From Ignavibacteriota bacterium (GTDB taxonomy: Bacteria > Bacteroidota > Ignavibacteria > Palsa-1295), in assembly GCA_963736195.1 (NCBI GenBank), contig CAVTNP010000001.1:1717068-1781067 (forward strand): a stretch of DNA of 64,000 nt. The letters run 5' to 3'. Below the pieces are notes generated by a model, which did not search any database, was not told the origin of the DNA, and was given only the letters and a program-made list of their open reading frames with translations. Shown here in pieces: positions 6,856 to 52,197 of the stretch. Within the stretch, counting starts at the first letter, position 1. Each line of letters begins with the position of its first letter. A program made the translations under genes and the position numbers.

Positions 6856-7639
6856 GAAATAGGTGAGGTAAGAAGTAAGCGGCTAAGAAGAGGTAAGAAA
6901 TGAGATAGAAGGAAATTTTAGAATAATTTGGTATTATGGAACGGGCGGTGAGGGGTTATGGTTAAAGGCGTCCCAACAATAGGGAAGGCTCGTAAAACTC
7001 TCGTAGAGCCGCCGGTTAGAAGGTGCTAAAATCGTCAACGATCAGCAAACCACCCACCGGAAAAATAAAATCTTAAAAATCTCTTAATATAGCGCGGAAG
7101 CGAGAACTTCCGTTCGAGGACGCGGGTTATACCGCTCCCCTCGAAAGAGGGATTTTGTCTGCTGTTTGAAAAAGCTCTTGGCTAATTCAATAAGATCAGC
7201 AAAAACAAGTGTTCATTGAAATAGAAGGGCTACCCACATTTGGTGGGTAGCAGGAATGAGCAATCATGATTGCTCATTCGAAGTCAGCATGATGAGCCCG
7301 CGCAGTGATGCGTGGGGGTTACTTGCGGATGGGAAGACATTCCCATCCCTGTAGCGGCCAGGTCGCAAACTAAAGTTTGCGCTACATGGTCTCATCAGCA
7401 GCAAGCAACCGTGAATTTAGACCCTCACCCAACCTCTCCCGCTTGCGGGCGAGGAGCAGTGATTAAAGGGTCGTGAGGTTCACACACTTGCAATCTGGAA
7501 CAACAAGCGTTTATTTATAGACGCCACGTTGTTCTGAGATTTCAGTATCAAACCTGAAATAGTACAGCGCTAAGTAGTTCGGACGCATGTTCGCGCTATG
7601 AAGCTATCATTCTTTATGAATGATTAAGTGAAAATATGT

Positions 7640-9138
<1,499 letters not shown>

Positions 9139-16124: not shown

Positions 16125-17021
16125 TCAACGCTTTTTCTCGATCTTAGCAAGACTTAGATCGGTATTAAATAATTCATTCATCTGGGTGAGGAAGTGATTC
16201 GACAGCTCTGGTGTGAGCGATTTTGTTGGAGTGTGGAGAAAAAAATAAACAGTTTGCAATCCGTTATCCATCCATAATTTGATGCGAGTGGCCCATGCAT
16301 CGATTCGTGTGAAATCCGTCTCGTGTAATTCATTGCCGTTGAAGCGAATGAAGGCTGTTCGCGTTGTTAGGCCCATGTGCAACGCATCGCGTCGCCCCGA
16401 TGTATCGGTTATGACGGTGCCGATCTTTCGCTTGCGCATTTCTTGAAATAGTGTATCAAGTACTTGATGGTCTGAGAACCACTCTGCCCGGCGCAATTCG
16501 ACATACAGTGGGAGCGTTTTATCCCACAGGTCAAAAAAAGTCACGAGGTCGTCAAACCGTTGCGGAGAGAAGGTGGAGTGTAATTGCAAGAACACAACCC
16601 CGAGATGCTTCCCGAACGCATGCATGGAATCGCAGAATTCTGTTAGAGCCCGTCTATTCTTACCCAGAGGCTTTACTTGACAGATCGGCTGCGATACTTT
16701 GGGGCAAAACAGGAACCCTTTGGGAACGACATTTATCCAATCTTCCACCATTGTCCGCGTCGGAATCCGGTACAAGGTCATGTTCTGCTCGATCACGTTG
16801 AACTGCTGCGCATAGAACTTCAGGTAATCCTTCGGCTTAGTGCCTTTTGGATAGATCTTTCCTGGAAATCCATCATTGCCCCACTCTGGTAATCCTGAAT
16901 AGATATTCACCCGTTTGGCGGGTTTTCCCTTCAATACTTTTGCTGTGATCGGATGATCGGGAGGCAGCGAAAAGTCGATGTGGTCGATTTCGTCCAGGTG
17001 TCCAAATTTCATGGAATGCAA
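16125..17021 (-). CDS. DUF72 (UPF0759/YecE-like) family protein
   Basis: YAQQFNVIEQNMTLYRIP...WINVVPKGFLFCPKVSQPI matches the DUF72 signature F..VE.N.TFY...W...P.GF.F..K. Confidence 0.65.
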   Translation of the reverse strand: MHSMKFGHLDEIDHIDFSLPPDHPITAKVLKGKPAKRVNIYSGLPEWGNDGFPGKIYPKGTKPKDYLKFYAQQFNVIEQNMTLYRIPTRTMVEDWINVVPKGFLFCPKVSQPICQVKPLGKNRRALTEFCDSMHAFGKHLGVVFLQLHSTFSPQRFDDLVTFFDLWDKTLPLYVELRRAEWFSDHQVLDTLFQEMRKRKIGTVITDTSGRRDALHMGLTTRTAFIRFNGNELHETDFTRIDAWATRIKLWMDNGLQTVYFFLHTPTKSLTPELSNHFLTQMNELFNTDLSLAKIEKKR

Positions 17022-19808: not shown

Positions 19809-20351
19809 GTGATGTTAGATACTCGGTCAATATATTTCGTCTATGAGAACCCCTATTTTTATCCTGGTGCTCGCGTTTGCATGAGTGGGAATGCATTTGC
19901 CCAAAAGATTGAGGATCGAATGACGCCAGCACAACTTAAGGCCCTGTTTCCTCAGTATTCAAAGATGTTCGATGATTCGGGTATTGTCGCTATAGATTCA
20001 TCAGATCATTTCTACTTTCACGGTGTGAAGGGTGAGGCGGACTTCATGTTCCAATTTGGCCACCTCAAGTGGTTTCGATGGGTTTATTCGAATGGAAAAA
20101 AACCATTTACACTATTGACAAAAAAGGATCGGAAAAAATTATCTAAATTATTCAAAGGATTAATTGCCGATTATGGGCCTTTTCAAGTACAAACTACTTT
20201 TGGTGATTACTATTGGCAAATGTCACGTGCTAATGTTGCCTGTGATTATTCCGCTCGAGATTTTAGATTTGGGGTTTATGACAGTGCATTTGTAAAAATG
20301 ATGTTCGCACCTACTCCAAATCACCATGATTCAACCGCTGCAAAACGTTAG
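19809..20351 (+). CDS. hypothetical protein
   Basis: A 180 aa ORF with no recognisable motif. The start is uncertain. Confidence 0.35.
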   Translation: MMLDTRSIYFVYENPYFYPGARVCMSGNAFAQKIEDRMTPAQLKALFPQYSKMFDDSGIVAIDSSDHFYFHGVKGEADFMFQFGHLKWFRWVYSNGKKPFTLLTKKDRKKLSKLFKGLIADYGPFQVQTTFGDYYWQMSRANVACDYSARDFRFGVYDSAFVKMMFAPTPNHHDSTAAKR

Positions 20352-20368
20352 CGTATCTCAGATCACTC

Positions 20369-20463
20369 TCAATGCTTCCCATTCTGATGCATTCCTTCAC
20401 GCATCGCCCGTCAAAATATGCCCCAGCTTTTTGCGCTTGGTTTCTAAGTAACCGGTATTCCGT
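20369..20463 (-). repeat. degenerate partial copy A of the ribBA 3' end (att-like direct repeat)
   Basis: The reverse complement reads ...[12 protein letters not shown] and then carries a 1 nt deletion relative to the ribBA tail. tcaatgcttcccattctga...atatgccccagctttttgcgcttggtttctaagtaacc is shared with 21078.. and 21702... Confidence 0.6.
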
Positions 20464-20763
20464 TTAGGGTGCGGGGTAATGAGCATCTCTGCGGATTCCT
20501 TCACGCACGTATTCTGCAGCCAGCGTAGCGAGATCGACTTTTCGTTTCTTTGCAAGCGTCTTCAACTGCCGTGCTGAGGCATCATCGATATGGAGGGAGA
20601 TTAGGCCCTCGGTCCGCTTGAGGTTGGGAAAGGCATTAGGTTCGGTAATTCGTCCCTCTTTTGAAAAGCTGAAATAATCGCTCATTTCGTGGGTTGCCCA
20701 GAACTCGCGTTCCTCGTCCTCGGAATCGAATTTCGGAATAGGTTTAAGGTTCTTGCTGTCCAT
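20464..20763 (-). CDS. brnA: BrnA-like antitoxin (RHH/CopG-type) partner of BrnT
   Basis: 99 aa, with the 3' end overlapped by the brnT start in operon order toxin-antitoxin. The C-terminal LKTLAKKRKVDLATLAAEYVREGI resembles a ribbon-helix-helix. Confidence 0.6.
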   Translation of the reverse strand: MDSKNLKPIPKFDSEDEEREFWATHEMSDYFSFSKEGRITEPNAFPNLKRTEGLISLHIDDASARQLKTLAKKRKVDLATLAAEYVREGIRRDAHYPAP

Positions 20764-21076
20764 AATCGTTTCTGTCTTTTCTACTCATCGGCCGTGCCGA
20801 TATTACTCGAATGCTTCTTGCTCTGATAGTAAACACCAAGGTGAGCAATCTGTTTCCGTCCGTTTTCCCAAGTACACCATAACGAGTTTCTGTCGTGGAA
20901 TGCTTGGGATCATCGGAAAATTGCAGCGGCTCGTTTCCAAAAATTTCCTCGGCCTCTACATTGGAGACTCGATGCTTTTTCCAATTTTTGTTGATATTAC
21001 CGGTATCCCATTCGAAGCCCGTGCATCGTGCAACCAGCGCGGCAATATCTGAATGACGGGAATCGTCAGCATTCAT
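20744..21076 (-). CDS. brnT: BrnT-family toxin (DUF497 ribonuclease)
   Basis: FEWDTGNINKNWKKHRVSNVEAEEIF...RYGVLGKTDGNRLLTLVFTIRARSIRVISARPMSRKDRNDY matches the DUF497/BrnT consensus FEWD..K...N..KHGVSF.EA..VF...R.I..ARRA...ER..Y. Confidence 0.75.
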   Translation of the reverse strand: MNADDSRHSDIAALVARCTGFEWDTGNINKNWKKHRVSNVEAEEIFGNEPLQFSDDPKHSTTETRYGVLGKTDGNRLLTLVFTIRARSIRVISARPMSRKDRNDYGQQEP

Positions 21077-21077
21077 T

Positions 21078-21187
21078 TAATGCTTACCATTCTCGCGAAT
21101 CCCTTCGTGCATCCCAGCCAAAATATGCCCCAGCTTTTTGCGCTTGGTTTCTAAGTAACAGGCGTTCTGTGCGTTCGAGGGGAATTT
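21078..21187 (-). repeat. partial copy B of the ribBA 3' end (in-frame tail ...[25 protein letters not shown] stop)
   Basis: About 110 bp similar to 21702..21811. Conservation is codon-like, with conservative and synonymous changes and the stop retained. Confidence 0.65.
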
Positions 21188-21214
21188 GTTCAAACATAAA
21201 ATCACGCACAGGTT

Positions 21215-21415
21215 CTAAACCGTTTCGAGAGACACTTTCAAAATGTCTCCCATCGAGACGCGTTTTGAGAGGCGCAGAATTTCTACGCCGACCACTTCAT
21301 CGTGCTCGTTAAAATCGAGTACAACGCCTGGCGTGACTTCCTCCGAATCCACTATTTTGGATTCGTCGAGCCGCAGGTACAGCGCATCCGATTCGCGATC
21401 TACTTTTAGTCTCAT
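21215..21415 (-). CDS. DUF2283 (YuzE-like) small protein, putative antitoxin-like partner
   Basis: MRLKVDRESDALYLRLDESKIVDSEEVTPGVVLDFNEHDEVVGVEILRLSKR is the typical DUF2283 sequence pattern. Confidence 0.65.
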   Translation of the reverse strand: MRLKVDRESDALYLRLDESKIVDSEEVTPGVVLDFNEHDEVVGVEILRLSKRVSMGDILKVSLETV

Positions 21416-21663
21416 AGCTTATTCTTGAGCCTCCGGTCAAAAAAGGTCGATACGACAAGCGGAGGAACTACCGTATTATTCAATACAACCCGAAGAACGC
21501 GGTTTCCGTTTTCGGTGATTCGGGCAAGGAAATGGGTTAGTTCTGGATCCTCCCGATCCGGCTCAGTTCGGACGGGATTTTCAATGGTTCGCGCGACCCA
21601 GTCCGGATCGATCTCCCTCTCTATTATCGCATCACGAGCATGGCTTGTATATTCTAATTGCAT
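21412..21663 (-). CDS. DUF4258 protein, putative toxin-like partner of DUF2283
   Basis: HARDAIIEREIDPDWVARTIENPVRTEPD... matches the DUF4258 N-terminal pattern. It overlaps the downstream DUF2283 gene by 4 nt. Confidence 0.6.
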   Translation of the reverse strand: MQLEYTSHARDAIIEREIDPDWVARTIENPVRTEPDREDPELTHFLARITENGNRVLRVVLNNTVVPPLVVSTFFDRRLKNKL

Positions 21664-21701
21664 TGTAACAATTTCATTTGCTCATGCTAATTATTCAAGT
21701 G

Positions 21702-22931
21702 TCAATGCTTCCCATTCTGATACATCCCTTGGTGCATCCCCGTCAAGATATGCCCCAGCTTTTTGCGCTTGGTTTCTAAGTAACCGGCATTCCGTGCGTT
21801 CGCGGGAATTTCTATGGGAACCCGCTCGACTATTTCTAAGCCATAGCTCGAAAGTCCCACCACTTTTTTCGGGTTGTTCGTCATCAGGCGCATTTTTCGG
21901 ACGCCGAGATCGGCCAGCAGTTGCGCGCCCAATCCGTAATCGCGCAGGTCGGCTTTGAATCCAAGTTTCTCGTTCGCTTCGACAGTATCCGCGCCTTCTT
22001 CCTGCAATTTGTAGGCGCGCAGCTTATTTGCCAATCCGATCCCGCGCCCTTCTTGGCGCATATAGACCACGATCCCGCGGCCTTCCTGCTCCACCATCAT
22101 CATCGCAGCATGAAGCTGATCCTGGCAATCGCAGCGCAAGGAACCCAGCGTATCGCCGGTAAAGCACTCGGAGTGCACGCGCACCAGCACCGGCTCACCA
22201 TTCGCAACATCACCTTTTGTGAGCGCGATATGCTCCTTGTGATCCACTTTATTCTCGTACAAGTGCAACCGGAAATCGCCGTATTCCGTGGGAAGGTTAA
22301 CCTCCACAATTTTGTGCATCAGCTTTTCGCGCGTCATCCGATACGCGATGAGATCCTGCACGGAAATGATCTTAAAATTGAACTCCTCGGCAAATTTCAC
22401 AAGCTCTGGCATCCGTGACATGGAACCATCCTCGTTCATTACTTCACACAGCAGCGCGATGGGTTGGAATCCCGCCATTCGTGCAAGATCGACAGCGGCT
22501 TCGGTATGTCCGGCGCGGCGCAGCACACCTTCATCGACGGCGCGAAGAGGGAAGATGTGCCCAGGCCGCGCGAAATCGTGACCGACGGTCTTAGGATTTG
22601 TCAGCGCAAGAACGGTTTTTGCACGATCGCTGGCGGATACGCCGGTGGAAGTTCCATGCAAATAATCGATGCTGACGGTGAACGGCGTTCCATGCCGCGC
22701 GGTATTGACGTCCACCATCATCGGCAGATCAAGCGCCGCCGCGCGTTCTTCGGAGAGCGGCGCGCAGATAATTCCACTGGTCCGCCGCAGCATGAACGCG
22801 ATCATCTCCGGCGTAACCATTTCTGCCGCCGCGACGAGGTCGCCTTCATTCTCGCGCTCCTCATCGTCAACGACAATGACCATCCGTCCGCGCCGGATGT
22901 CTTCAAGTGCTTCGTCGATGGTGTTTAACAT
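21702..22931 (-). CDS. ribBA: bifunctional 3,4-dihydroxy-2-butanone-4-phosphate synthase / GTP cyclohydrolase II
   Basis: RENEGDLV and [14 protein letters not shown] are RibB motifs. CDCQDQL and [33 protein letters not shown] are RibA motifs. The last ~35 codons coincide with repeat copy C (21702..21811). Confidence 0.9.
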
Positions 22932-25392: not shown

Positions 25393-26559
25393 ATGGAGCC
25401 ATTACCACCAGTAAAAGAAGTCGAATATCGTTGTTACATCGGTAAGGTGTTCGAGGAACTTTCAGGCACGGAATTCATGACCTTCGCCTTCGAGACCGCG
25501 AAGGAGTTCTCGAGCTTTCGCTATGAGATCGCGGTGCGATACCGCATCCAGCCGGGGCTGCTCGAGTTCAAAGTGCTTGGCATGACGGCTACGCGCACCA
25601 TGATGCCGGCGTTCGGAACCGCTCGCTCGGTGCTCAAGGTGCCGCTCCTGCCGCTGGGGGTTTATACCGTGAAGATGATCAAGAGCGACGATACCGAGAA
25701 TATGTTCAGCATCGAGGTCTCGAAAAAAGGCTTTCAGATTTTGCTGCCGATACCGCGCAAGCGGTTCATCGATCTGGTGATCGAAAATAAGGCATCCATT
25801 CCGAACGCAAAGCACCTTTCGACGGTATCGAAAACGCCACCGGTTCCGTTGGTGCCGCGCACGATTCAAAAACGTGTACCATTGCCGGGCGAATTGGAGG
25901 ATGGTGAAATGGAAATGGTTGAAGAGACAGAGATGCAGGACGATGATGTCCTTTTTGACGAAACTCCGAAATCGAAGAGCGGAGCTAAACATGCGATCGA
26001 GGAGATAAGTGAAGTTCCCGAGACTCACAGGCCCAGTGCGAAGCCAAAAGCAGAGCCAAAGCACAAACCCGAGCCAAAACACAAAGCTGAGCCAGAGCCA
26101 AAGCACAAAGCTGAGCCAGAGCCAAAACACAAAGCCGAACTGGAGCCAAAACACAAAGCCGAACTGGAGCCAGAACACAAAGCTGAGCAGGAGCCGAAGC
26201 ACAAAGCTGAACCAGAGCCAAAACACAAAGCTGAGCAGGAGCCAAAACACAAAGCTGAGCAGGAGTCGAAGCATAAAGTGGAATCTAAACCAAAAGCCGA
26301 GCCAAAGACCGCGAAAGCACCGACTGAGAAGGCTGCTAAAGTTCCGAATGTGAAAACGGCAAAGGCTACTTTAGTCAAAGAGAAGAAACCAGAGCAAAAG
26401 CCTGCCAAACCGGCACGCGCTGCGGCCAAACCCGCTAAGAAGGTGGCCGGCAAAGCGAAAGCCCCGGCACCAAAGGCTGCTGCAAAGAAGAAAGCTCCTA
26501 CGAAACCAAAGCCAGCACCAAAAGCTAAAGCGGCGAAGAAATCAGGGAAGAAGAAATGA
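25393..26559 (+). CDS. hypothetical protein with a tandem (K)AEPEPKHK octapeptide array and a Lys/Ala/Pro-rich histone H1-like C-terminal tail
   Basis: About 10 copies of AEPEPKHK or close variants, encoded by 24 nt DNA repeats at 26040..26290. The tail is AKPAKKVAGKAKAPAPKAAAKKKAPTKPKPAPKAKAAKK. Confidence 0.7.
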   Translation: MEPLPPVKEVEYRCYIGKVFEELSGTEFMTFAFETAKEFSSFRYEIAVRYRIQPGLLEFKVLGMTATRTMMPAFGTARSVLKVPLLPLGVYTVKMIKSDDTENMFSIEVSKKGFQILLPIPRKRFIDLVIENKASIPNAKHLSTVSKTPPVPLVPRTIQKRVPLPGELEDGEMEMVEETEMQDDDVLFDETPKSKSGAKHAIEEISEVPETHRPSAKPKAEPKHKPEPKHKAEPEPKHKAEPEPKHKAELEPKHKAELEPEHKAEQEPKHKAEPEPKHKAEQEPKHKAEQESKHKVESKPKAEPKTAKAPTEKAAKVPNVKTAKATLVKEKKPEQKPAKPARAAAKPAKKVAGKAKAPAPKAAAKKKAPTKPKPAPKAKAAKKSGKKK

Positions 26560-42881: not shown

Positions 42882-43793
42882 TTATTTTGCAGTCGAATCG
42901 ACAGAGATGAGGGTGAAAGTGCGTTTCATATACTCTTTAGTTAGCCCTCCACTGGTTTCGGTTCGAAGAACGGGTAATCCATCGGAAGTTCGAAATTGTT
43001 CGAGACGGTCGGTTTTGCCGTGACCGGCAACGGTGCCACCAAACACCTGGTAGTTTATTGCTTTCGTTGTTAGCTCGTATATTCCTGCTTTCCTCTCGCT
43101 CAGATTCTGGCTAAGAGAATAATCGTTGCGATACGAATTATAACTCGGGCCGGGAGGGTTTAACACGACGGGACCACTGGCAGAATGATTTAATGGAATA
43201 TGAGGAGGGTTTGTCACCTCGTGACTGCTATCGTTCCATTCAGAACCACGGCGAACATTAGATCGAGCCGACCGTGGAGCAAAGTTCTTGTACAATGATC
43301 GTTTGATAGCTGTACTATCCTCGACCCCCCAGCCGTTGAAATTGGGATCTTTCATCTTTTCGTGAAAGATGCTATCATGGGTGTTGCGCCGAAGGATCAT
43401 TCCATCAAGATACATTCCATATTTATCTACCTTTACACTATAAAGTGGAATGTCTTCTCCGAGATTATGGGATACGCGTGGTCCTTCCAATACATCGTGT
43501 GTGTCATCACCGCCCTTGAAATCGTGCGTTTCGGTATTTTGCACAACGAGCGTTGCAGAGCCATCGAGATCAACATTTACGACCGCAATTTGAATATCTT
43601 CCTTGGAATCAAAATTTCCTCCTTCATAACCTGGCGGGTTATCCGGGCTCCGCATCTCATCCAGCCGCTGATAATGCAAGACAGTTCCTGCCTTGAAATG
43701 ATAGGAAAGATCGACCGGCGTGGGCGCTGTTGCCTGTGCGAGAGAGGTTTTGGCATAAGCCATCGAGATCAAGATGCAGCAAAAAAGTATTTT
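42882..43793 (-). CDS. secreted hypothetical protein
   Basis: The signal peptide is ILFCCILISMAYAKTSLAQA. The longest ORF, with its start at 43844, would overlap the tRNA-Val, so an internal GTG/ATG start is more likely. Confidence 0.45.
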   Translation of the reverse strand, partial: KILFCCILISMAYAKTSLAQATAPTPVDLSYHFKAGTVLHYQRLDEMRSPDNPPGYEGGNFDSKEDIQIAVVNVDLDGSATLVVQNTETHDFKGGDDTHDVLEGPRVSHNLGEDIPLYSVKVDKYGMYLDGMILRRNTHDSIFHEKMKDPNFNGWGVEDSTAIKRSLYKNFAPRSARSNVRRGSEWNDSSHEVTNPPHIPLNHSASGPVVLNPPGPSYNSYRNDYSLSQNLSERKAGIYELTTKAINYQVFGGTVAGHGKTDRLEQFRTSDGLPVLRTETSGGLTKEYMKRTFTLISVDSTAK

Positions 43794-43837
43794 CACAACG
43801 ATATGTTCCACAAATTCTAACTTCTCAATTGAAACCG

Positions 43838-43912
43838 TGGGCATTACAGGGTTCGAACCTGTGACCTTTCGCGTGTGAGGCGAACGCTCTGGACCAGCTG
43901 AGCTAAATGCCC
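43838..43912 (-). tRNA. tRNA-Val (anticodon CAC)
   Basis: The reverse complement folds as a cloverleaf: acceptor GGGCATT/AATGCCC, D stem GCTC/GAGC, anticodon stem TTCGC/GCGAA with loop CTCACAC, T stem ACAGG/CCTGT with loop TTCGAAC. No CCA is encoded. Confidence 0.85.
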
Positions 43913-45310: not shown

Positions 45311-48300
45311 ATGAGAAAAGTCCAGCGCATTCTTTGGGTGAGCATCATGCTGCTTGCTACCATCGCGTTAGCTCCACATTCTGCATTCGCGCAGGTGAGC
45401 ACCTCAACCGATGTTCCCCGCACGCTTAGTTATCAGGGCGTTCTTCAGTCGGACAATGGCGCGCCTGTCAACGGTGTCAAGCCGATGACGATTCGGCTGT
45501 ATTCGGATTCGGCAGGTTCGCAACTTGTTTGGGAAGATGAATTTGCAGTCAACGTGCAGAACGGCGTCTTCAATGTGATCCTCGGATCTCAGAAGCCGCT
45601 GCCCGATGCATCGCAGGTTACGGGTGCCCTCTGGCTGTCAACCCAGATCGGCGATTCGCTCGTCACTGGTTCGCTGACGCAGCTTTCGGCTTCGCCGTAT
45701 GCGCTCACAGTCCCGAACAATTCTATTACAGCCTCGAAAATGGGAACGGATTACGTCGGCTCGATCTCGTTGAATGGTAAGAAAATGACCGTCCGCGGAG
45801 GCGATCTCAATATTGTAACCGACGGTACCCTTCAGGCTACCTATGTGCCGACCTCCAATTCACTGCTTTTGAGCGCAACAGGTGGTGGTAATGGCAGTGG
45901 CAAGGGTAGTGGCAATGCGCTTATGAGCAATTACTGGGGTGAGTCTCCGTATCCGATGAATTACCTTGGGGATATGTGTTACAATGACCAAAACGACAAT
46001 GCCCAGACCCTTGAATGCAATTGGAGTACCCAGAAGATGTTTGTTACCGAGACGGGCACGGGAACACAGGGTTCTGCGCCAACATGGGCCACAATAAATG
46101 CAAGCGATCTTCCGCCGCTCGATAGCTGCACAGGGACGGTTCACGTCTCGAATGGTGGAACCGGCTGCACCTCCTATTCTACAGGTGACTTCTTGTATTG
46201 CTCGGGGTCAAACGCTCTTTCGCGACGCAGCATAGGTTCCGCTGGGCAAATTCTATCCTGCCAAAGCGGCCTGCCGACCTGGCATACACTCTGCGGAAGT
46301 GATCTTCCGGCTCTTGATAGCTGTCACGGCACAGTGCATGCCGCGAACGGAGGTACGGGTTGCACCACGTACAATGTCGGAGATATTTTGTATTGTTCAA
46401 CCGCAGGATCGCTTTCGCGGCTTAGCTGCGGATCAACCGGGCAGATACTGCAGTGCCAGGGCGGAGTTCCAACCTGGCAGCCCTGCCCGTCAGGAACGGT
46501 AACAGGGATTACCTTATCAACCGGATCAACAGGACTCACTGTTAATGGCGGCACGAGCGCCACTGTGAATTCCTCCGGTACATTTTCTATTGCCGGCACG
46601 CTTGCTATCACCGATGGTGGTACCGGCGCAACGACGGCCACTGCAGCGATCAACAATTTGCTTCCATCGCAGACAAGCAATGCGAACAAATACCTGCAAA
46701 CTAACGGCAGCGGAACACTTGTGTGGGCATCCGGCCCAGTTGGAGCTACAGGAGCAACTGGAGCTACCGGTGCCACAGGAGCGACAGGCCCGCAAGGACC
46801 AGCAGGCACGAATGGCGCTACCTGGTGGACTGGTACCACGGCTCCGGCCACGGGTACGGGTAGTGTCAACGATTATTATTTCGAATCCTCCAATGGATAC
46901 GTGTATGAAAAGACAGGAACGTCAACCTGGACTCAGATCGCAAATATCACTGGCCCAACAGGAGCCACTGGTGCAACAGGTGCTACCGGCCCCACGGGAG
47001 CTACCGGAGCAACAGGAGCGACTGGTGCAGCAGGAACGAATGGCCTTACTTGGTTTACTGGGACGACAACCCCAGCCTCTGGCACCGGCGCACTGAACGA
47101 CTTGTACTTTGAGTCGACAAATGGTTATGTCTATCAAAAGACTGCTTCGACAACATGGACGCAGATTGCCAACATCACCGGGCCACAAGGACCTGCTGGT
47201 ACCAATGGAACAAATGGTACTAACGGTACCAACGGAACGAATGGCACGAACGGAACGAATGGTGCCACGTGGTGGAGCGGCACCAGCACGCCATCGACAG
47301 GCACGGGCAGTGTAAACGACTACTACTTCGAATCATCGAATGGCGAAGTCTATCAGAAGACTGGCTCGACGACGTGGACCGCTTTGGCGAACATCACAGG
47401 CCCAACCGGTGCTACGGGCGCAACGGGCGCGACCGGAGCTACTGGCCCGCAAGGTCCACAAGGTATCCAGGGCGCGACCGGTGCAACTGGAGCAACGGGC
47501 GCCACTGGCCCGCAAGGTGTTCAGGGAGCCACCGGCGCAGCCGGAGCGAATGGTGCCACTTGGTGGAGCGGCACCAGCACACCGTCCACAGGAACGGGTA
47601 GCGTAAACGACTACTACTTCGAATCATCGAATGGCGAAGTCTATCAGAAGACTGGTTCGACGACGTGGACCGCATTAGCGAACATCACAGGCCCAACCGG
47701 AGCAACCGGAGCAACCGGTGCCACAGGAGCTACTGGCCCGCAAGGTCCACAAGGTATCCAGGGAGCAACCGGCGCGACTGGAGCAACGGGCGCCACTGGC
47801 CCGCAAGGTCCCCAAGGCATCCAGGGAGCAACCGGAGCTACTGGCGCGACTGGCGCAACCGGCGCCACCGGCGCAGCCGGAGCGAATGGTGCCACCTGGT
47901 GGAGCGGCACCAGCACCCCATCGACAGGCACGGGCAGCGTAAACGATTATTATTTCGAATCATCGAATGGCGAAGTCTATCAGAAGACTGGTTCGACGAC
48001 GTGGACCGCATTAGCGAACATCACAGGCCCAACCGGTGCAACTGGAGCAACGGGCGCGACCGGAGCTACTGGCCCGCAAGGTCCCCAAGGCATCCAGGGA
48101 GCGACCGGCGCGACTGGAGCAACCGGCGCCACTGGCCCGCAAGGTGTTCAGGGAGCCACCGGCGCAGCCGGAGCGAATGGTGCCACTTGGTGGAGCGGCA
48201 CCAGCACACCGTCCACAGGAACGGGTAGCGTAAACGACTACTACTTCGAATCATCGAATGGCGAAGTCTATCAGAAGACTGGTTCGACGACGTGGACCGC

Positions 48301-51300
48301 TTTGGCGAACATCACTGGCCCAACCGGTGCAACTGGCGCAACGGGCGCGACCGGAGCTACTGGCCCGCAAGGTCCGCAGGGTGTTCAGGGTGCAACAGGC
48401 GCCACTGGTCCGCAGGGTATTCAGGGAGCGACTGGAGCAACCGGTGCAGCCGGTGCGAATGGTGCAACCTGGTGGAGCGGCAGCAGCACGCCATCACCTA
48501 GCACGGGATCCAACAACGATTATTACTTCGAAACCTCAAATGGGGAAGTATATCTAAACGTTGAAGGATCGTGGACCGCTATAGCGAATATCACTGGCCC
48601 ACTGGAGCAACAGGCGCGACCGGAGCAACGGGTGCCACAGGAGCTACCGGGCCGCAGGGTCCGCAAGGTATTCAGGGAGCAACCGGAGCTACGGGAGCAA
48701 CCGGAGCAAGCGGAGCCACGGGCGCCACAGGCCCGCAGGGTCCCCAAGGTGTCCAAGGTGCGACGGGAGCCACAGGAGAAGCCGGAGCAAATGGTGCGAC
48801 CTGGTGGAGTGGTACAAGTGCACCGTCATCAAGCACCGGATCGAATAATGACTATTATTTCGAAACTTCGAATGGCGAGGTTTATGAAAAGATCAGTGGT
48901 TCCTGGGGTAATGGGATCTCCAATCTCACCGGGCCGCAGGGTCCGCAGGGTGATGTTGGCCCAACAGGCACAAATGGAACGAATGGCATCAACGGTACCA
49001 ATGGCACCAATGGCGCGACGTGGTGGTCTGGAACTTCGACACCTTCCTCCAATATCGGCTCGAATAATGATTATTATTTTGAATACTCGAACGGAGAGGT
49101 TTACGAAAAATCTTCTAACACGTGGTCAGAAGTAGCAAATATTACAGGCCCAACTGGTCCGATGGGAGCCACAGGCGCAACTGGAGCAACTGGCCCACAG
49201 GGTCCGCAAGGAGTTCAGGGCGAGACAGGCGCAACCGGAGCAACTGGCGCACAAGGTGCGACGGGAGCCACAGGTGCAACTGGAGCGACCGGCCCACAGG
49301 GTCCACAAGGTATTCAGGGTGCTACTGGAGCAACCGGTGCCACCGGCGCAGCCGGAGTGAATGGTGCCACTTGGTGGAGCGGCACCAGCACACCGTCCAC
49401 AGGAACGGGTAGCGTAAACGACTACTACTTCGAATCATCGGATGGCGAAGTCTATCAGAAGACGGGTTCGACAACTTGGACAGCTTTAGCGAACATCACA
49501 GGCCCAACCGGCGCAACAGGAGCGACGGGTGCAACTGGAGCACAGGGTCCGCAAGGCATTCAGGGTGCGACCGGACCACAGGGTCCGCAAGGCGTACAGG
49601 GTGCGACGGGTGCAACTGGCCCACAAGGTACGCAAGGCGTTCAGGGTGCGACGGGTGATACTGGCCCGCAGGGACCGCAAGGCGTGCAGGGTGCAACTGG
49701 TGCACAGGGACCACAAGGCCCTGCTGGCAACAATGGAACGAATGGAGCTACCTGGTGGTCTGGGACGACTTCACCATCCTCAAGCACCGGAGTCAACAAC
49801 GATTACTATTTCGAAACCTCGAATGGCGAGGTTTACGAGAAAATTAGTGGTGCATGGGGTAATGGAATTGCCAACCTGACTGGCCCACAAGGCCCACAAG
49901 GCGATGTTGGTCCTGCCGGATCCGATGGTACTAATGGTATCAACGGAACGAATGGAACCAATGGAGCGACTTGGTGGTCAGGAAGCTCGACACCATCATC
50001 GAGCATCGGTTCGAATAACGATTACTATTTCGAGTACTCGAATGGCGAGGTATACGAAAAGTCAGCTGGGACGTGGTCAGAGGTTGCCAATCTCACCGGT
50101 CCTGAGGGTCCACAGGGTCCTGCGGGTCCAAGTTCACTCTCAACAAGCACGAGTACCAGCGGCTCCGGATTCTTGGTTGCTAATGGTTCTAATGTGACGT
50201 TCGAGAGTGCCGTCAACCTGGCTTCTTCTGTTTCCGGTACACTTGCGGTCAGCAATGGCGGTACAGGTACTACCACAGCGCTCAGCACAGGCAGCGTCGT
50301 GTTTGCAACGTCTGGCGGGACATACACTGAGGATAATAACAACCTCTACTGGGATCAGACCAACCACCGGCTCGGTATCGGGACAACATCTCCGGGACAA
50401 TCACTCGATATTAATGGTACTGTGCAGATCGAGAACATGCCTACCGGAAGCACAACCGAAAATGTCGTGACTGCGGATGATAATGGTGTTCTCTCGGTGA
50501 TCCCGGCTTCTGATCTTATGGGAACGGGTTCCGGTCTCCAGGGCGGATCATGGCTCATTCAAGGTAATTCTGGAACTGATCCGAGCCAGAACTTTGTCGG
50601 GACGACCGATGCGAACGATCTTGTATTCCGGACCAATAATACCGAATTCATGCGAGTTCAGTCTGGCGGAAATGTCGGTATCTGGACTACAACGCCGAAT
50701 GCGGCCCTTGAAGTGGATGGATCCTTCTTAGCGTCTGGAAGCACAGGAGCGGCTCCTGCGTCAGGTGCTGGAACGCGACTGATGTGGGATCCCGATAACG
50801 CTGCATTACGCGCGGGTTCTGTCGATGGCACCCAATGGGATGAGGGATCGAGCAACATTGGCTCGAACTCGATGGCCTTTGGGTATGATGTTACGGCATC
50901 TGGTGCATACGCGTTGGCATCTGGGAATTACTCCAACGCAAGTGGCGCGAATGCCACAGCGATGGGTAATTCGGCGTCAGCGAGTGGTAATACTTCCGTA
51001 GCCATTGGATATAACACTGCGGCAGGCGGAGATTATTCTACCGCACTGGGCTATTTAACGCAGGCGAACTACAACTACTCCACCTCGATGGGTAGTGGTA
51101 CCGAAGCCAACAACCAATACGCAACCGCGATGGGTAACGGCAGCTATGCTGGCGGGAATAGTTCGACGGCGATGGGATACCAGACTCAGGCGAACGGAGA
51201 TTTCTCCACGGCTATGGGTAACGCTACGCAGGCGACTGGAGAGTATTCAACGGCTATGGGTTATGGAACCCTTGCAACGGCGCAGTCCTCTTTTGCAATT

Positions 51301-52197
51301 GGCGAACAGGGCTCGGAAGCAACTGCCGAAGCTTCGATGGCAGCGGGTATCGGCACCACTGCAGAAGCAATGGACGCGACAACATTTGGCGAAAATACTA
51401 TTGCTAACGCAGAGGGAGCCACCGCTTTCGGAAACACTACGAATGCAAGCGGATTGTACTCGGTCGCATTCGGCACTTCCACGACAACGACGGGAAGCAA
51501 TTCAGCTGCCTTTGGTGAGAATGGAACGACTGCCGGAGGAGAGGCTTCTGTGGCGATGGGTAATGATGCCCAGGCGAGCGGAGCTTATTCGCTCGCAATT
51601 GGCAATACTACCACTGCCAGCGGTTCTTCTTCATTCGCATCGGGTAACAGCAACATTGCGCAAGGTGCAAATTCGATCGCCATTGGATATAATTCTGACG
51701 CCTATGGCGACAATTCAGTCGCTATGGGAGTCGATGCCTCAACCGGCGTTGGGACGACCTATTACAACAATTCGTTCGTCTATGGTGATGGTTCTGCATC
51801 AACACTCAGTGATGCATCAAACGAATTCACCGTCCGCGCTTCGGCTGGATTCGAATTCTACGATAATGCGACCACTGCGCCAGACATGACCCTTGCAAAT
51901 GGGCAGCTCAATGTGAGTGGCACAGTCCGAGTAGGCGGCAGCATCGTTGCTACCTCAAGCAGCACGGCGCAATCGTCGGATAATGGCGTGACCGTCTCGG
52001 ATGTACCGGTCTTTATTATTTCAGCCGGTTCTACATCGGGTGCATTCGCACTGACCATGCCAAGCGGTTCGATCACCGGTGACATGATCGTCGTTATTAA
52101 TCAGGACCCGAACTACTGCGCTACCTATGGCTCGACTGCGAAAGTTGCACCGCTCGGTTCGCGCACGTTCTACTTCGACGGCAGCAACTGGCAGTAA
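45311..52197 (+). CDS. giant secreted fibrous protein (~2300 aa if the frameshift near 48600 is bridged): collagen-like G-X-Y tracts alternating with 12 copies of a ~46 aa WW...DYYFE...NGEVY...ANITGP module, NGGTG tail-fibre-like repeats, and a YadA-head-like SxAxG repeat region
   Basis: Signal peptide [28 protein letters not shown]. The two ORFs 45311..49135 and 48571..52197 are the same gene in different frames; the second ORF resumes the GATGATG collagen repeat. Approximate domain map: Cys-rich NGGTG repeats at 46080..46740, collagen/module array at 46740..50140, Hep_Hag-like repeats at 50880..51780. Confidence 0.75.

Follow-up and report, generated by a model that had tools for sequence, protein, structure and literature searches.

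The repeated 3' end of ribBA

The subject of this analysis is the 3' end of ribBA, the gene of a bifunctional DHBP synthase / GTP cyclohydrolase II, in a 64,000-nt stretch of DNA from an uncultured, Kapaibacterium-like Ignavibacteriota bacterium (contig CAVTNP010000001.1, positions 1,717,068 to 1,781,067; hereinafter, the window). In this window, ribBA is followed by two small operons resembling toxin-antitoxin modules, each of which is bounded downstream by another copy of the ribBA terminus. Hence, the order on the minus strand is copy C (the functional end of ribBA), DUF4258/DUF2283 (cassette 1), copy B, BrnT/BrnA (cassette 2), and copy A. The features of this array are listed below; loci on other contigs that are used for comparison are designated by L numbers.

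21702..22931 (-): ribBA, bifunctional DHBP synthase / GTP cyclohydrolase II, 409 aa, intact
21702..21811 (-): copy C, functional ribBA tail, from codon ~374 to the stop; begins with AAATTCCCGCG and ends with TGA
21664..21701 (-): spacer from the ribBA stop to the DUF4258 ATG (left flank of cassette 1), 38 nt; homologous to the spacer in L082; 3 nt in L088
21412..21663 (-): toxin-like gene of cassette 1, DUF4258, 83 aa; Pfam PF14076, E = 9.8e-9, 35.8 bits (cutoff 25)
21215..21415 (-): partner gene of cassette 1, DUF2283, 66 aa; Pfam PF10049, E = 4.5e-17, 62.4 bits (cutoff 23)
21188..21214 (-): right flank of cassette 1, 27 nt; common to L088 (...TTATGTTTGAAC / AAATTCCC)
21077..21187 (-): copy B, displaced former ribBA tail, in frame from codon ~377, TAA stop; 85% identity to C over 108 nt
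20744..21076 (-): toxin of cassette 2, BrnT, 110 aa; Pfam PF04365, E = 9.6e-22, 77.5 bits (cutoff 34.5)
20464..20763 (-): antitoxin of cassette 2, BrnA, CopG/RHH type, 99 aa; Pfam PF12441, E = 6e-15, 56.2 bits (cutoff 28)
20369..20463 (-): copy A, the oldest displaced ribBA tail in the most likely order of events (see below), continuous with the native downstream flank; two blocks with 96% and 85% identity to C
19809..20351 (+): convergent open reading frame (ORF) of unknown function, the native downstream neighbor at the far edge of the insertion; no Pfam match; its ortholog is a 169-aa gene, L081 7248-7757

The repeat comprises the terminal ~108-110 nt of ribBA, from codon ~374 to the stop, and recurs twice downstream in the same orientation, in agreement with the original prediction, which recognized three co-oriented copies of the gene end at this place. 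All copies stop exactly at the stop codon, and ribBA itself stays a full 409-aa ORF. Copy B carries a single extra C close to its 5' edge and, as had been claimed, reads in frame through to its TAA. Copy A is devoid of the first ~14 nt of the repeat and is shifted by +1; the 1-nt deletion that was proposed for this copy is actually a 1-nt insertion (GACGGGCGATGC vs GACGGGGATGC). A 37-nt core, GTTACTTAGAAACCAAGCGCAAAAAGCTGGGGCATAT, is identical in C, B and A; when up to 3 mismatches were allowed, the core had 3 matches in the window and 0 in 100 shuffles (0 expected by chance). The 5' edge of the repeat harbors the 7-mer ATTCCCG (window 21801-21809), of which the window contains 18 copies.

The RibBA protein matches Pfam PF00926 (DHBP_synthase) and PF00925 (GTP_cyclohydro2), as well as NCBIfam PRK09311 at 637 bits. 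A look-up of the exact protein returned no record; a protein encoded on a 1.79-Mb contig (P0001) is 100% identical to it, and the nearest sequences in similarity come from metagenome-assembled genomes (MAGs) of Candidatus Kapaibacterium or Bacteroidota. Among the proteins P0001-P0016, the final ~10 residues (codons 397-409, window 21702-21740) are hypervariable, with the remainder of the proteins 93-96% identical, a pattern that is consistent with repeated replacement of the tail at a hotspot, with weak constraint on the tail, or with both.

The Pfam matches of the four cassette genes agree with the earlier assignment of a DUF4258/DUF2283 pair to the interval between C and B and of a BrnT/BrnA pair to that between B and A. 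A list of BECR / RelE-ParE-fold toxin families from type II modules includes both DUF4258 and BrnT, and gives the toxin-then-antitoxin order for BrnT (PMC11980606). BrnT and BrnA follow this order with an overlap of 20 nt and, judging by their sequences, can be assigned to a type II toxin-antitoxin pair. DUF4258/DUF2283, where the partner gene overlaps the DUF4258 stop codon by 4 nt, is a putative type II toxin-antitoxin module, with DUF2283 as the presumed antitoxin. Both operons lie on the ribBA strand and are closely fitted to the repeats: the left gaps between cassette and repeat measure 0-38 nt and the right gaps 0-27 nt, and cassette 2 has no spacers at all, with the BrnT ATG directly following the stop of copy B and the BrnA stop abutting copy A. 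No terminator-like sites were found on the minus strand between ribBA and copy A; the scans for sigma-70 promoters and terminators yielded counts at shuffle-expected levels and are uninformative for this phylum. Given their close packing, their orientation along ribBA and the lack of an intrinsic terminator ahead of them, the cassettes are probably read through from ribBA, that is, co-transcribed with it.

At the far edge of the array, the convergent ORF (19809-20351) differs from its L081 ortholog at the N-terminus: the L081 protein starts with a signal-peptide-like MKSTIFLFAVAFS, and that of the window has ...FYPGARVC, followed in both cases by the common MSGNAFAQK. The gene in the window may be damaged at its 5' end, as far as can be judged from this comparison.

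Displaced gene ends and the order of insertion

Copies B and A are displaced former ends of ribBA, because each is orthologous to a tail that is functional in a relative. The functional ribBA end of L081 together with its flank (7137-7763) matches copy A and its flank (window 20463-19837) at 91.9% identity. Similarly, the segment of L090 that includes the functional ribBA end, BrnT and the start of BrnA (368-901) matches window 21187-20653 at 91.6%. L090 and copy B have in common the same CATTAA/ATG junction (TAA/ATG) and the ILAGMH variant, and the BrnT homolog that directly follows ribBA in L090 is 90% identical to BrnT of the window. The tail nearest to copy B is that of L090 (0.87), and the one nearest to copy A is that of L081 (0.91); with the frameshift removed, copy A reads TGMREGMHQNGKH, to be compared with TGMHEGMHQNGKH in P0005/L081. 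The arrangement C-cassette 1-B of the window is found also in L088, at ~80-84% identity, and copy 2 of L088 matches, at 99.1% identity, the tail that is functional in its relative L089. The original prediction ascribed the differences between the copies to donors with different ribBA alleles, which is plausible for tail B, given its resemblance to L090, and cannot be proved for tail C.

The matches of the displaced tails to L081 and L090, along with the single cassette of L090, lead to the most economical history of the locus, which would have three stages: a native tail A; then ribBA(B)-BrnTA-A; and finally ribBA(C)-DUF4258/DUF2283-B-BrnTA-A. Thus, we infer that BrnTA most likely came first and DUF4258/DUF2283 second. 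A possible alternative to this history is the import, in a single step, of a two-cassette array that had been stacked beforehand.

Empty, single and stacked sites in related genomes

The comparison set consists of 13 related loci with RibBA proteins 88-96% identical, located on contigs from other samples. Upstream of the repeat, hisS, PTS-EIIA, yajC and ribBA are syntenic in all of them, whereas everything downstream of ribBA varies, and the 13 loci display at least 6 cassette configurations, with no mobility genes.

L094: one tail; 39 nt after ribBA, then a 286-aa gene; the simplest empty site
L081: one tail; followed by the convergent 169-aa gene; empty site
L084: one tail; no cassette; the sole locus that came from scans of metagenome-contig DNA (0 loci, then 1)
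L089: one tail; RES/Xre-like pair on the opposite strand
L082: one tail; DUF4258/DUF2283 after ribBA, no second tail
L088: two tails; DUF4258/DUF2283, the second tail, then a 90-aa ORF and another DUF2283
L083: two tails; a 42-aa ORF (possible toxin remnant) and a 63-aa antitoxin, named Phd/YefM in the sources
L085 and L087: two tails; sortilin-like gene and an orphan antitoxin (Phd-like or DUF2283)
L091 and L092: two tails; BrnT, BrnA, DUF2283, then a truncated tail
A 9.9-kb contig from the Joint Genome Institute: BrnT, BrnA and DUF2283 after ribBA, the tail count for this arrangement having been made in L091 and L092 only
L090: one tail seen (the contig ends in BrnA); genuine ribBA (at least 476 nt) passing straight into BrnT

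Two small ORFs in this set were considered as toxin candidates. The 90-aa ORF upstream of DUF2283(73) in L088 has neither similarity to DUF4258 nor a Pfam match, and was rejected as a DUF4258 protein; the 42-aa ORF of L083 resembles, by eye, the N-terminus of a RelE/ParE toxin and yields no Pfam match.

Thus, the empty site that the original prediction expected among relatives exists in L094 and L081, and the ribBA terminus is a real, strain-variable insertion hotspot, as had been proposed on the basis of the window; the displaced former ends and the variable number and content of the cassettes in the relatives make serial insertion the most likely course of events. The duplication of the tail is confined to one narrow clade: a downstream copy of the gene's own tail was found in 0 of 80 ribBA loci of species representatives from diverse phyla, a control that takes in six relatives at a greater distance, from the Kapaibacterium group or its vicinity. 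The sole match of this kind in the control is a perfect 55-nt duplication in or next to the ribBA end of a Dethiobacter MAG (L062 2641-2695 and ~2800-2855), which may be an assembly artifact.

In L089, a pair of the RES-domain / Xre-MbcA-ParS type (7283-8627, minus strand) is located right after ribBA, on the opposite strand, with no duplication of the tail; therefore, toxin-antitoxin-like modules reach this spot by more than one route. BrnT and BrnA genes 64% identical to those of the window are present in L093 at another locus, with no ribBA tail and adjoining a DUF72 gene (L093 5001-5613, 6007-6921); L093 also contains a second, partial BrnA-like gene (1490-1783). A DUF72 homolog is found in the window ~3.4 kb beyond the array (16125-17021).

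Search for a recombinase and for a recombination site

No recombinase or transposase domain, Phage_integrase included, was detected in the 39 ORFs of the window, in line with the original statement that the window encodes no integrase, and the gene tables of the 13 related loci list no recombinases. The larger element with a tyrosine recombinase that was anticipated at the ribBA end is not seen in any of the 13 relatives, nor is any other larger integrase-bearing element. Neither the exact core nor a degenerate pattern of the tail had a match in viral contigs (0 each); an origin from a prophage or plasmid was rejected, the array as a whole being unmatched among phages and plasmids.

Several candidates for a recombination site were examined within the repeat. 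An attC-like site was rejected, as neither strand of C, B or A, taken as single-stranded DNA, folds better than shuffled sequences (z from -1.49 to +0.56), and inspection of the sequence revealed no GTTRRRY / RYYYAAC boxes. Constraint on the 37-nt core at the DNA level was rejected as well: in 8 orthologs, synonymous differences in the core amount to 0.249 vs a gene mean of 0.279 (rank 131 of 398). With no excess of synonymous conservation among orthologs, the identity of the core within the window is better explained by homogenization. The inverted repeat TCCCGCG..CACGGAA (codons ~376-381), which scored as terminator-like on the plus strand, was discarded as a recombinase core given that its right arm is not conserved among the target tails. 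Altogether, with no recombinase, no phage, plasmid or viral match, no attC fold and no constraint on the core, the earlier suggestion of an att site served by an integrase in trans, or of a decayed island, found no support.

The 5' junctions of the repeats fall within a narrow zone of ~25 nt, codons ~372-380 (about -9 to +14 around ATTCCCG), and the right-hand junctions vary by cassette type, being located at about -9, -3, 0 and +14 relative to ATTCCCG. The same 7-mer also makes codons 1-3 (ATGATTCCCG) of the 283/286-aa gene that comes after ribBA in empty-site relatives. These sites at the start of the next gene (L094 7270-7280, L081 7908-7918, L082 7752-7762) are preceded, to the left of the ATG, by sequences that differ in all three genomes. 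In L082, cassette 1 is joined to the next gene exactly at ATTCCCG, with no tail copy; this junction might reflect a second site of recombination, a microhomology that served a deletion or homology-facilitated illegitimate recombination, or chance.

How the cassettes could have been acquired

The scenario that we tentatively favor, with a probability of roughly 0.45, over the action of a recombinase in trans combines repeat-mediated homologous recombination with toxin-antitoxin addiction and involves no dedicated integrase. The incoming DNA would bring a small toxin-antitoxin operon linked to a tail like that of ribBA and would recombine with the resident ribBA terminus, so that the incoming tail would become the new functional end of the gene and the resident tail would end up behind the cassette, as a relic without function; in the lineage of the window, the same event most likely occurred twice. 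The relic tail beside each cassette would then serve as portable homology, enabling RecA-type recombination with DNA of related strains to move, stack or delete cassettes. The exchange can be envisaged as a double crossover, with the left arm in the body of ribBA and the right arm in the tail copy behind the cassette in the donor or, alternatively, as the integration, through one Campbell-type crossover, of a circle that is composed of tail and cassette and was excised between repeats. Deletion between repeats would be expected to be frequent: non-addictive cargo would be lost in this way, whereas loss of an addictive module would kill the cell. The predominance of toxin-antitoxin pairs at this site would follow because deletion removes other cargo and is penalized for such pairs, and the orphan antitoxins and toxin fragments of the relatives (L083, L085, L087) would be the expected products of decay. 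In chromosomal integrons, toxin-antitoxin cassettes have been shown to counter-select cassette excision (10.1101/2022.08.03.502626). For the ribBA array, we infer both the retention by addiction and the enzymology of recombination.

The preference for homologous recombination stems from the homogenization of the core, the private variant of L091, the mosaic in L088, and the failure to find a dedicated recombination system. Specifically, the cores of the window are nearest to each other (97-100% over a 46-nt block), whereas the tails track different relatives; both copies of L091 carry the private variant CATCTTTTG; and copy 1 of L088 is a mosaic. Taken together, these sequence patterns are signs that the copies undergo homologous recombination or gene conversion. 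The right-hand neighbors of the array differ widely, so that conserved flanks are not found on both sides and the tail repeat is the sole constant homology on the right.

Several considerations speak against this scenario. Homologous recombination leaves unexplained how at least 4 unrelated cassette types first gained a tail, and a duplication that extends from a narrow start zone (codons ~372-380) to the exact stop is the classical signature of an integrase at the 3' end of a gene. Copy B, in its informative parts (core and tail), and L088 copy 2, over its whole length, look recipient-like, which fits a crossover near the 5' edge better than random crossovers. A stretch of 108 nt at 85-90% identity is a poor substrate for RecA, and natural competence of the host would have to be assumed. 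Sliding-window identity of the ribBA bodies, compared with 8 relatives, gave no clear donor tract or breakpoint upstream of the repeat, although this method cannot separate homologous from site-specific recombination. Finally, of this genome, which measures at least 1.79 Mb, 64 kb were searched for recombinases.

An explanation that we consider possible but doubtful is a tyrosine or serine recombinase that is encoded elsewhere in the genome and acts in trans on the ribBA terminus as attB, the strands being exchanged close to the 5' edge of the repeat. Under such a mechanism, a mini-cassette consisting of a toxin-antitoxin operon and a ribBA-like tail would be a circularizable unit, following an integron-like logic without attC hairpins. 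It would account for the duplication from a narrow 5' zone to the exact stop in every cassette type, for the minimal size of the cassettes (0.47-0.71 kb), which are co-oriented and have their ORFs abutting the repeats, and for the limitation of the phenomenon to one narrow clade, with 0/80 other ribBA loci affected; displaced copies that are recipient-like wherever they are informative are what a fixed crossover at the 5' edge predicts, and ATTCCCG is present both at the repeat edge and at the start of the next gene, where cassette 1 of L082 is joined. The evidence on the other side is that no such recombinase was found in the 39 window ORFs or the 13 related loci, that the folds of the repeat remain within shuffled controls (z -1.5 to +0.6), that the candidate inverted repeat at codons 376-381 is not conserved among the targets used, that synonymous conservation of the core is not in excess (0.249 vs 0.279, rank 131/398), and that the right-hand junctions vary between cassette types. 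The bolder form of the same idea, in which the last ~108 nt of ribBA are the attachment site of an undescribed cassette-capture system of Kapaibacteria, with a genome-encoded recombinase inserting and excising integrase-less mini-cassettes that bring replacement tails, and with a ribBA-driven array lacking attC hairpins, appears slightly more doubtful still.

Toxin-antitoxin modules are common maintenance genes of genomic islands, and it is conceivable, if improbable, that integrase-bearing elements at the ribBA 3' end shrank to such a module with its att repeats and that newcomers integrated beside these remnants, as in the accretion of cis-mobilizable elements (CIMEs). The topology of the locus does fit the three-step model of CIME accretion at gene 3' ends (PMC5704250) and the 163-bp pseudo-tail scar of e14 at icd (PMC6379469), but in none of the 13 loci does ribBA adjoin genes for an integrase, an excisionase or transfer, the searches against phages, plasmids and viral contigs were negative, and several independent elements would have to be trimmed to the exact ATG...stop, with left gaps of 0-38 nt and right gaps of 0-27 nt. 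An equally improbable course is local duplication, whereby unequal or microhomology-mediated tandem copying of the ribBA tail and the downstream spacer would have taken place a single time, in an ancestor; ATTCCCG in ribBA and ATGATTCCCG, with which the following gene begins, could have been the partners. The later diversity would have arisen via gene replacement in the slot and further unequal crossing-over. The microhomology exists at both relevant positions, 39 nt past the ribBA stop in L094; the junctions of the Phd cassettes read TATGATTCCCG or TATGATCCCCG; and the functional and the most distal tails are both native-like in L088 and in the window. However, the 7-mer is not rare, with 18 occurrences in the window, the junctions of the DUF2283 cassette and of BrnA are not at ATG/ATTCCCG, and the tail of copy B with its BrnT junction is orthologous to the functional ribBA end of L090, so that it was once a working tail and not a local copy of C or A. 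By far the least credible explanation is an assembly artifact, in which variants of the ribBA end from different strains would have been collapsed or wrongly joined. The contig is indeed metagenome-derived, and related strains do share samples (L083, L088 and L094 all come from ERZ26871208), but the tails of the copies differ from each other by 10-25%, intact and dissimilar operons lie between them, copy A has both a frameshift and a truncation, the arrangement C-cassette 1-B recurs in L088, an independent long-read contig, and two-copy arrays occur in five other assemblies. Neither of the outcomes that were to overturn the original prediction, namely, a duplication made in assembly and an ancient, invariant feature, is compatible with the diverged tails, the independent assemblies, long-read contigs included, and the variable relatives.

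Comparison with known systems

The closest parallel at the level of the gene end is the insertion of e14 (and phage 21) in icd of E. coli, where the element supplies a replacement 3' end and the original end is displaced as a pseudo-tail, icd', of 163 bp with codon-level differences, as is the case at ribBA (PMC6379469). In e14, the repeat starts at the crossover and continues to the gene terminus, a layout that the ribBA repeat seems to share. However, e14 is a ~15-kb prophage with its own integrase, whereas the ribBA inserts are toxin-antitoxin operons of 0.6-0.7 kb without a recombinase, two in series, and with many alternative cassettes in relatives. The att repeats of CIMEs, for their part, are short, tens of bp. 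In the tandem accretion of CIMEs at gene 3' ends (ICESt1/ICESt3 at fda of Streptococcus thermophilus), members have no integration genes and depend on functions provided in trans (PMC5704250). CIMEs are kilobase-scale remnants beside related integrase-bearing integrative and conjugative or integrative and mobilizable elements, in contrast to the ribBA units, which are single operons trimmed to their ORFs, with no parent element in the 13 loci. With e14 and CIMEs, the ribBA locus has in common the repeat of a gene end, the empty site, and the displaced native tail on its native flank, but not an integrase at the site.

In staphylococci, elements of the SCCmec/SCC type (staphylococcal cassette chromosome) insert serially at the 3' terminus of a housekeeping gene, rlmH (orfX), where they form tandem arrays between direct repeats and include recombinase-less pseudo-SCC elements mobilized in trans. 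Unlike the ribBA array, they have repeats of ~15-18 bp, are of kilobase size, and are moved by known Ccr recombinases. The minimal mobile elements of Neisseria are different small cassettes that occupy one slot by conserved genes and are moved by homologous recombination without mobility genes; the term appears in PMC8627216 and PMC10745880. The ribBA array shares with them the varied cassettes at one slot and the lack of mobility genes. Minimal mobile elements, however, are located between two conserved genes, with no duplication of a gene end, whereas at ribBA the homology on the right is a portable copy of the tail of the left gene, and the downstream neighbors are not conserved.

Sedentary chromosomal integrons resemble the ribBA array in their tightly packed, co-oriented small cassettes, each with a ~100-nt repeat, and in their enrichment in toxin-antitoxin pairs that penalize loss (10.1101/2022.08.03.502626). 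Apart from these compact co-oriented cassettes, the defining features of an integron, IntI and attC, are missing: neither IntI nor attI was found (39 window ORFs, 13 loci), the repeat is the coding tail of a gene without attC-type hairpin potential, and the array is anchored in ribBA.

Other features of the window

Three further observations were made in the window. At 45311-52197 on the plus strand, two very large overlapping ORFs (1274 and 1208 aa) contain collagen-like GGx-CCx repeats with a 9-nt period, in several families of up to 300 nt; these ORFs may represent one frameshifted gene or a problem in the assembly of repeats. An ORF of 388 aa without a Pfam match (25393-26559, plus strand) includes, at 26018-26329, ~10 tandem units of 24 nt that encode an 8-residue repeat rich in K, A, E and P. 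The tRNA-Val(CAC) gene (43837-43912, minus strand) and a 320-aa ORF without a Pfam match (42882-43844, minus strand) overlap by 8 nt at the predicted start of the ORF; no integrase is adjacent.

Implications

The movement of toxin-antitoxin modules between genomes is poorly understood, and the ribBA locus presents empty, one-cassette and stacked stages of this process, together with orphan antitoxins and with displaced tails that date the events. Should a recombinase acting in trans turn out to be responsible, the locus would represent a cassette system that is new and falls outside the integron paradigm, from a phylum that has received little study. If, on the other hand, recombination between portable tail repeats suffices, it would be a simple, integrase-free route by which addictive modules colonize, and stack up behind, an essential gene, and it would also explain the hypervariable C-terminal tail of RibBA in this clade.

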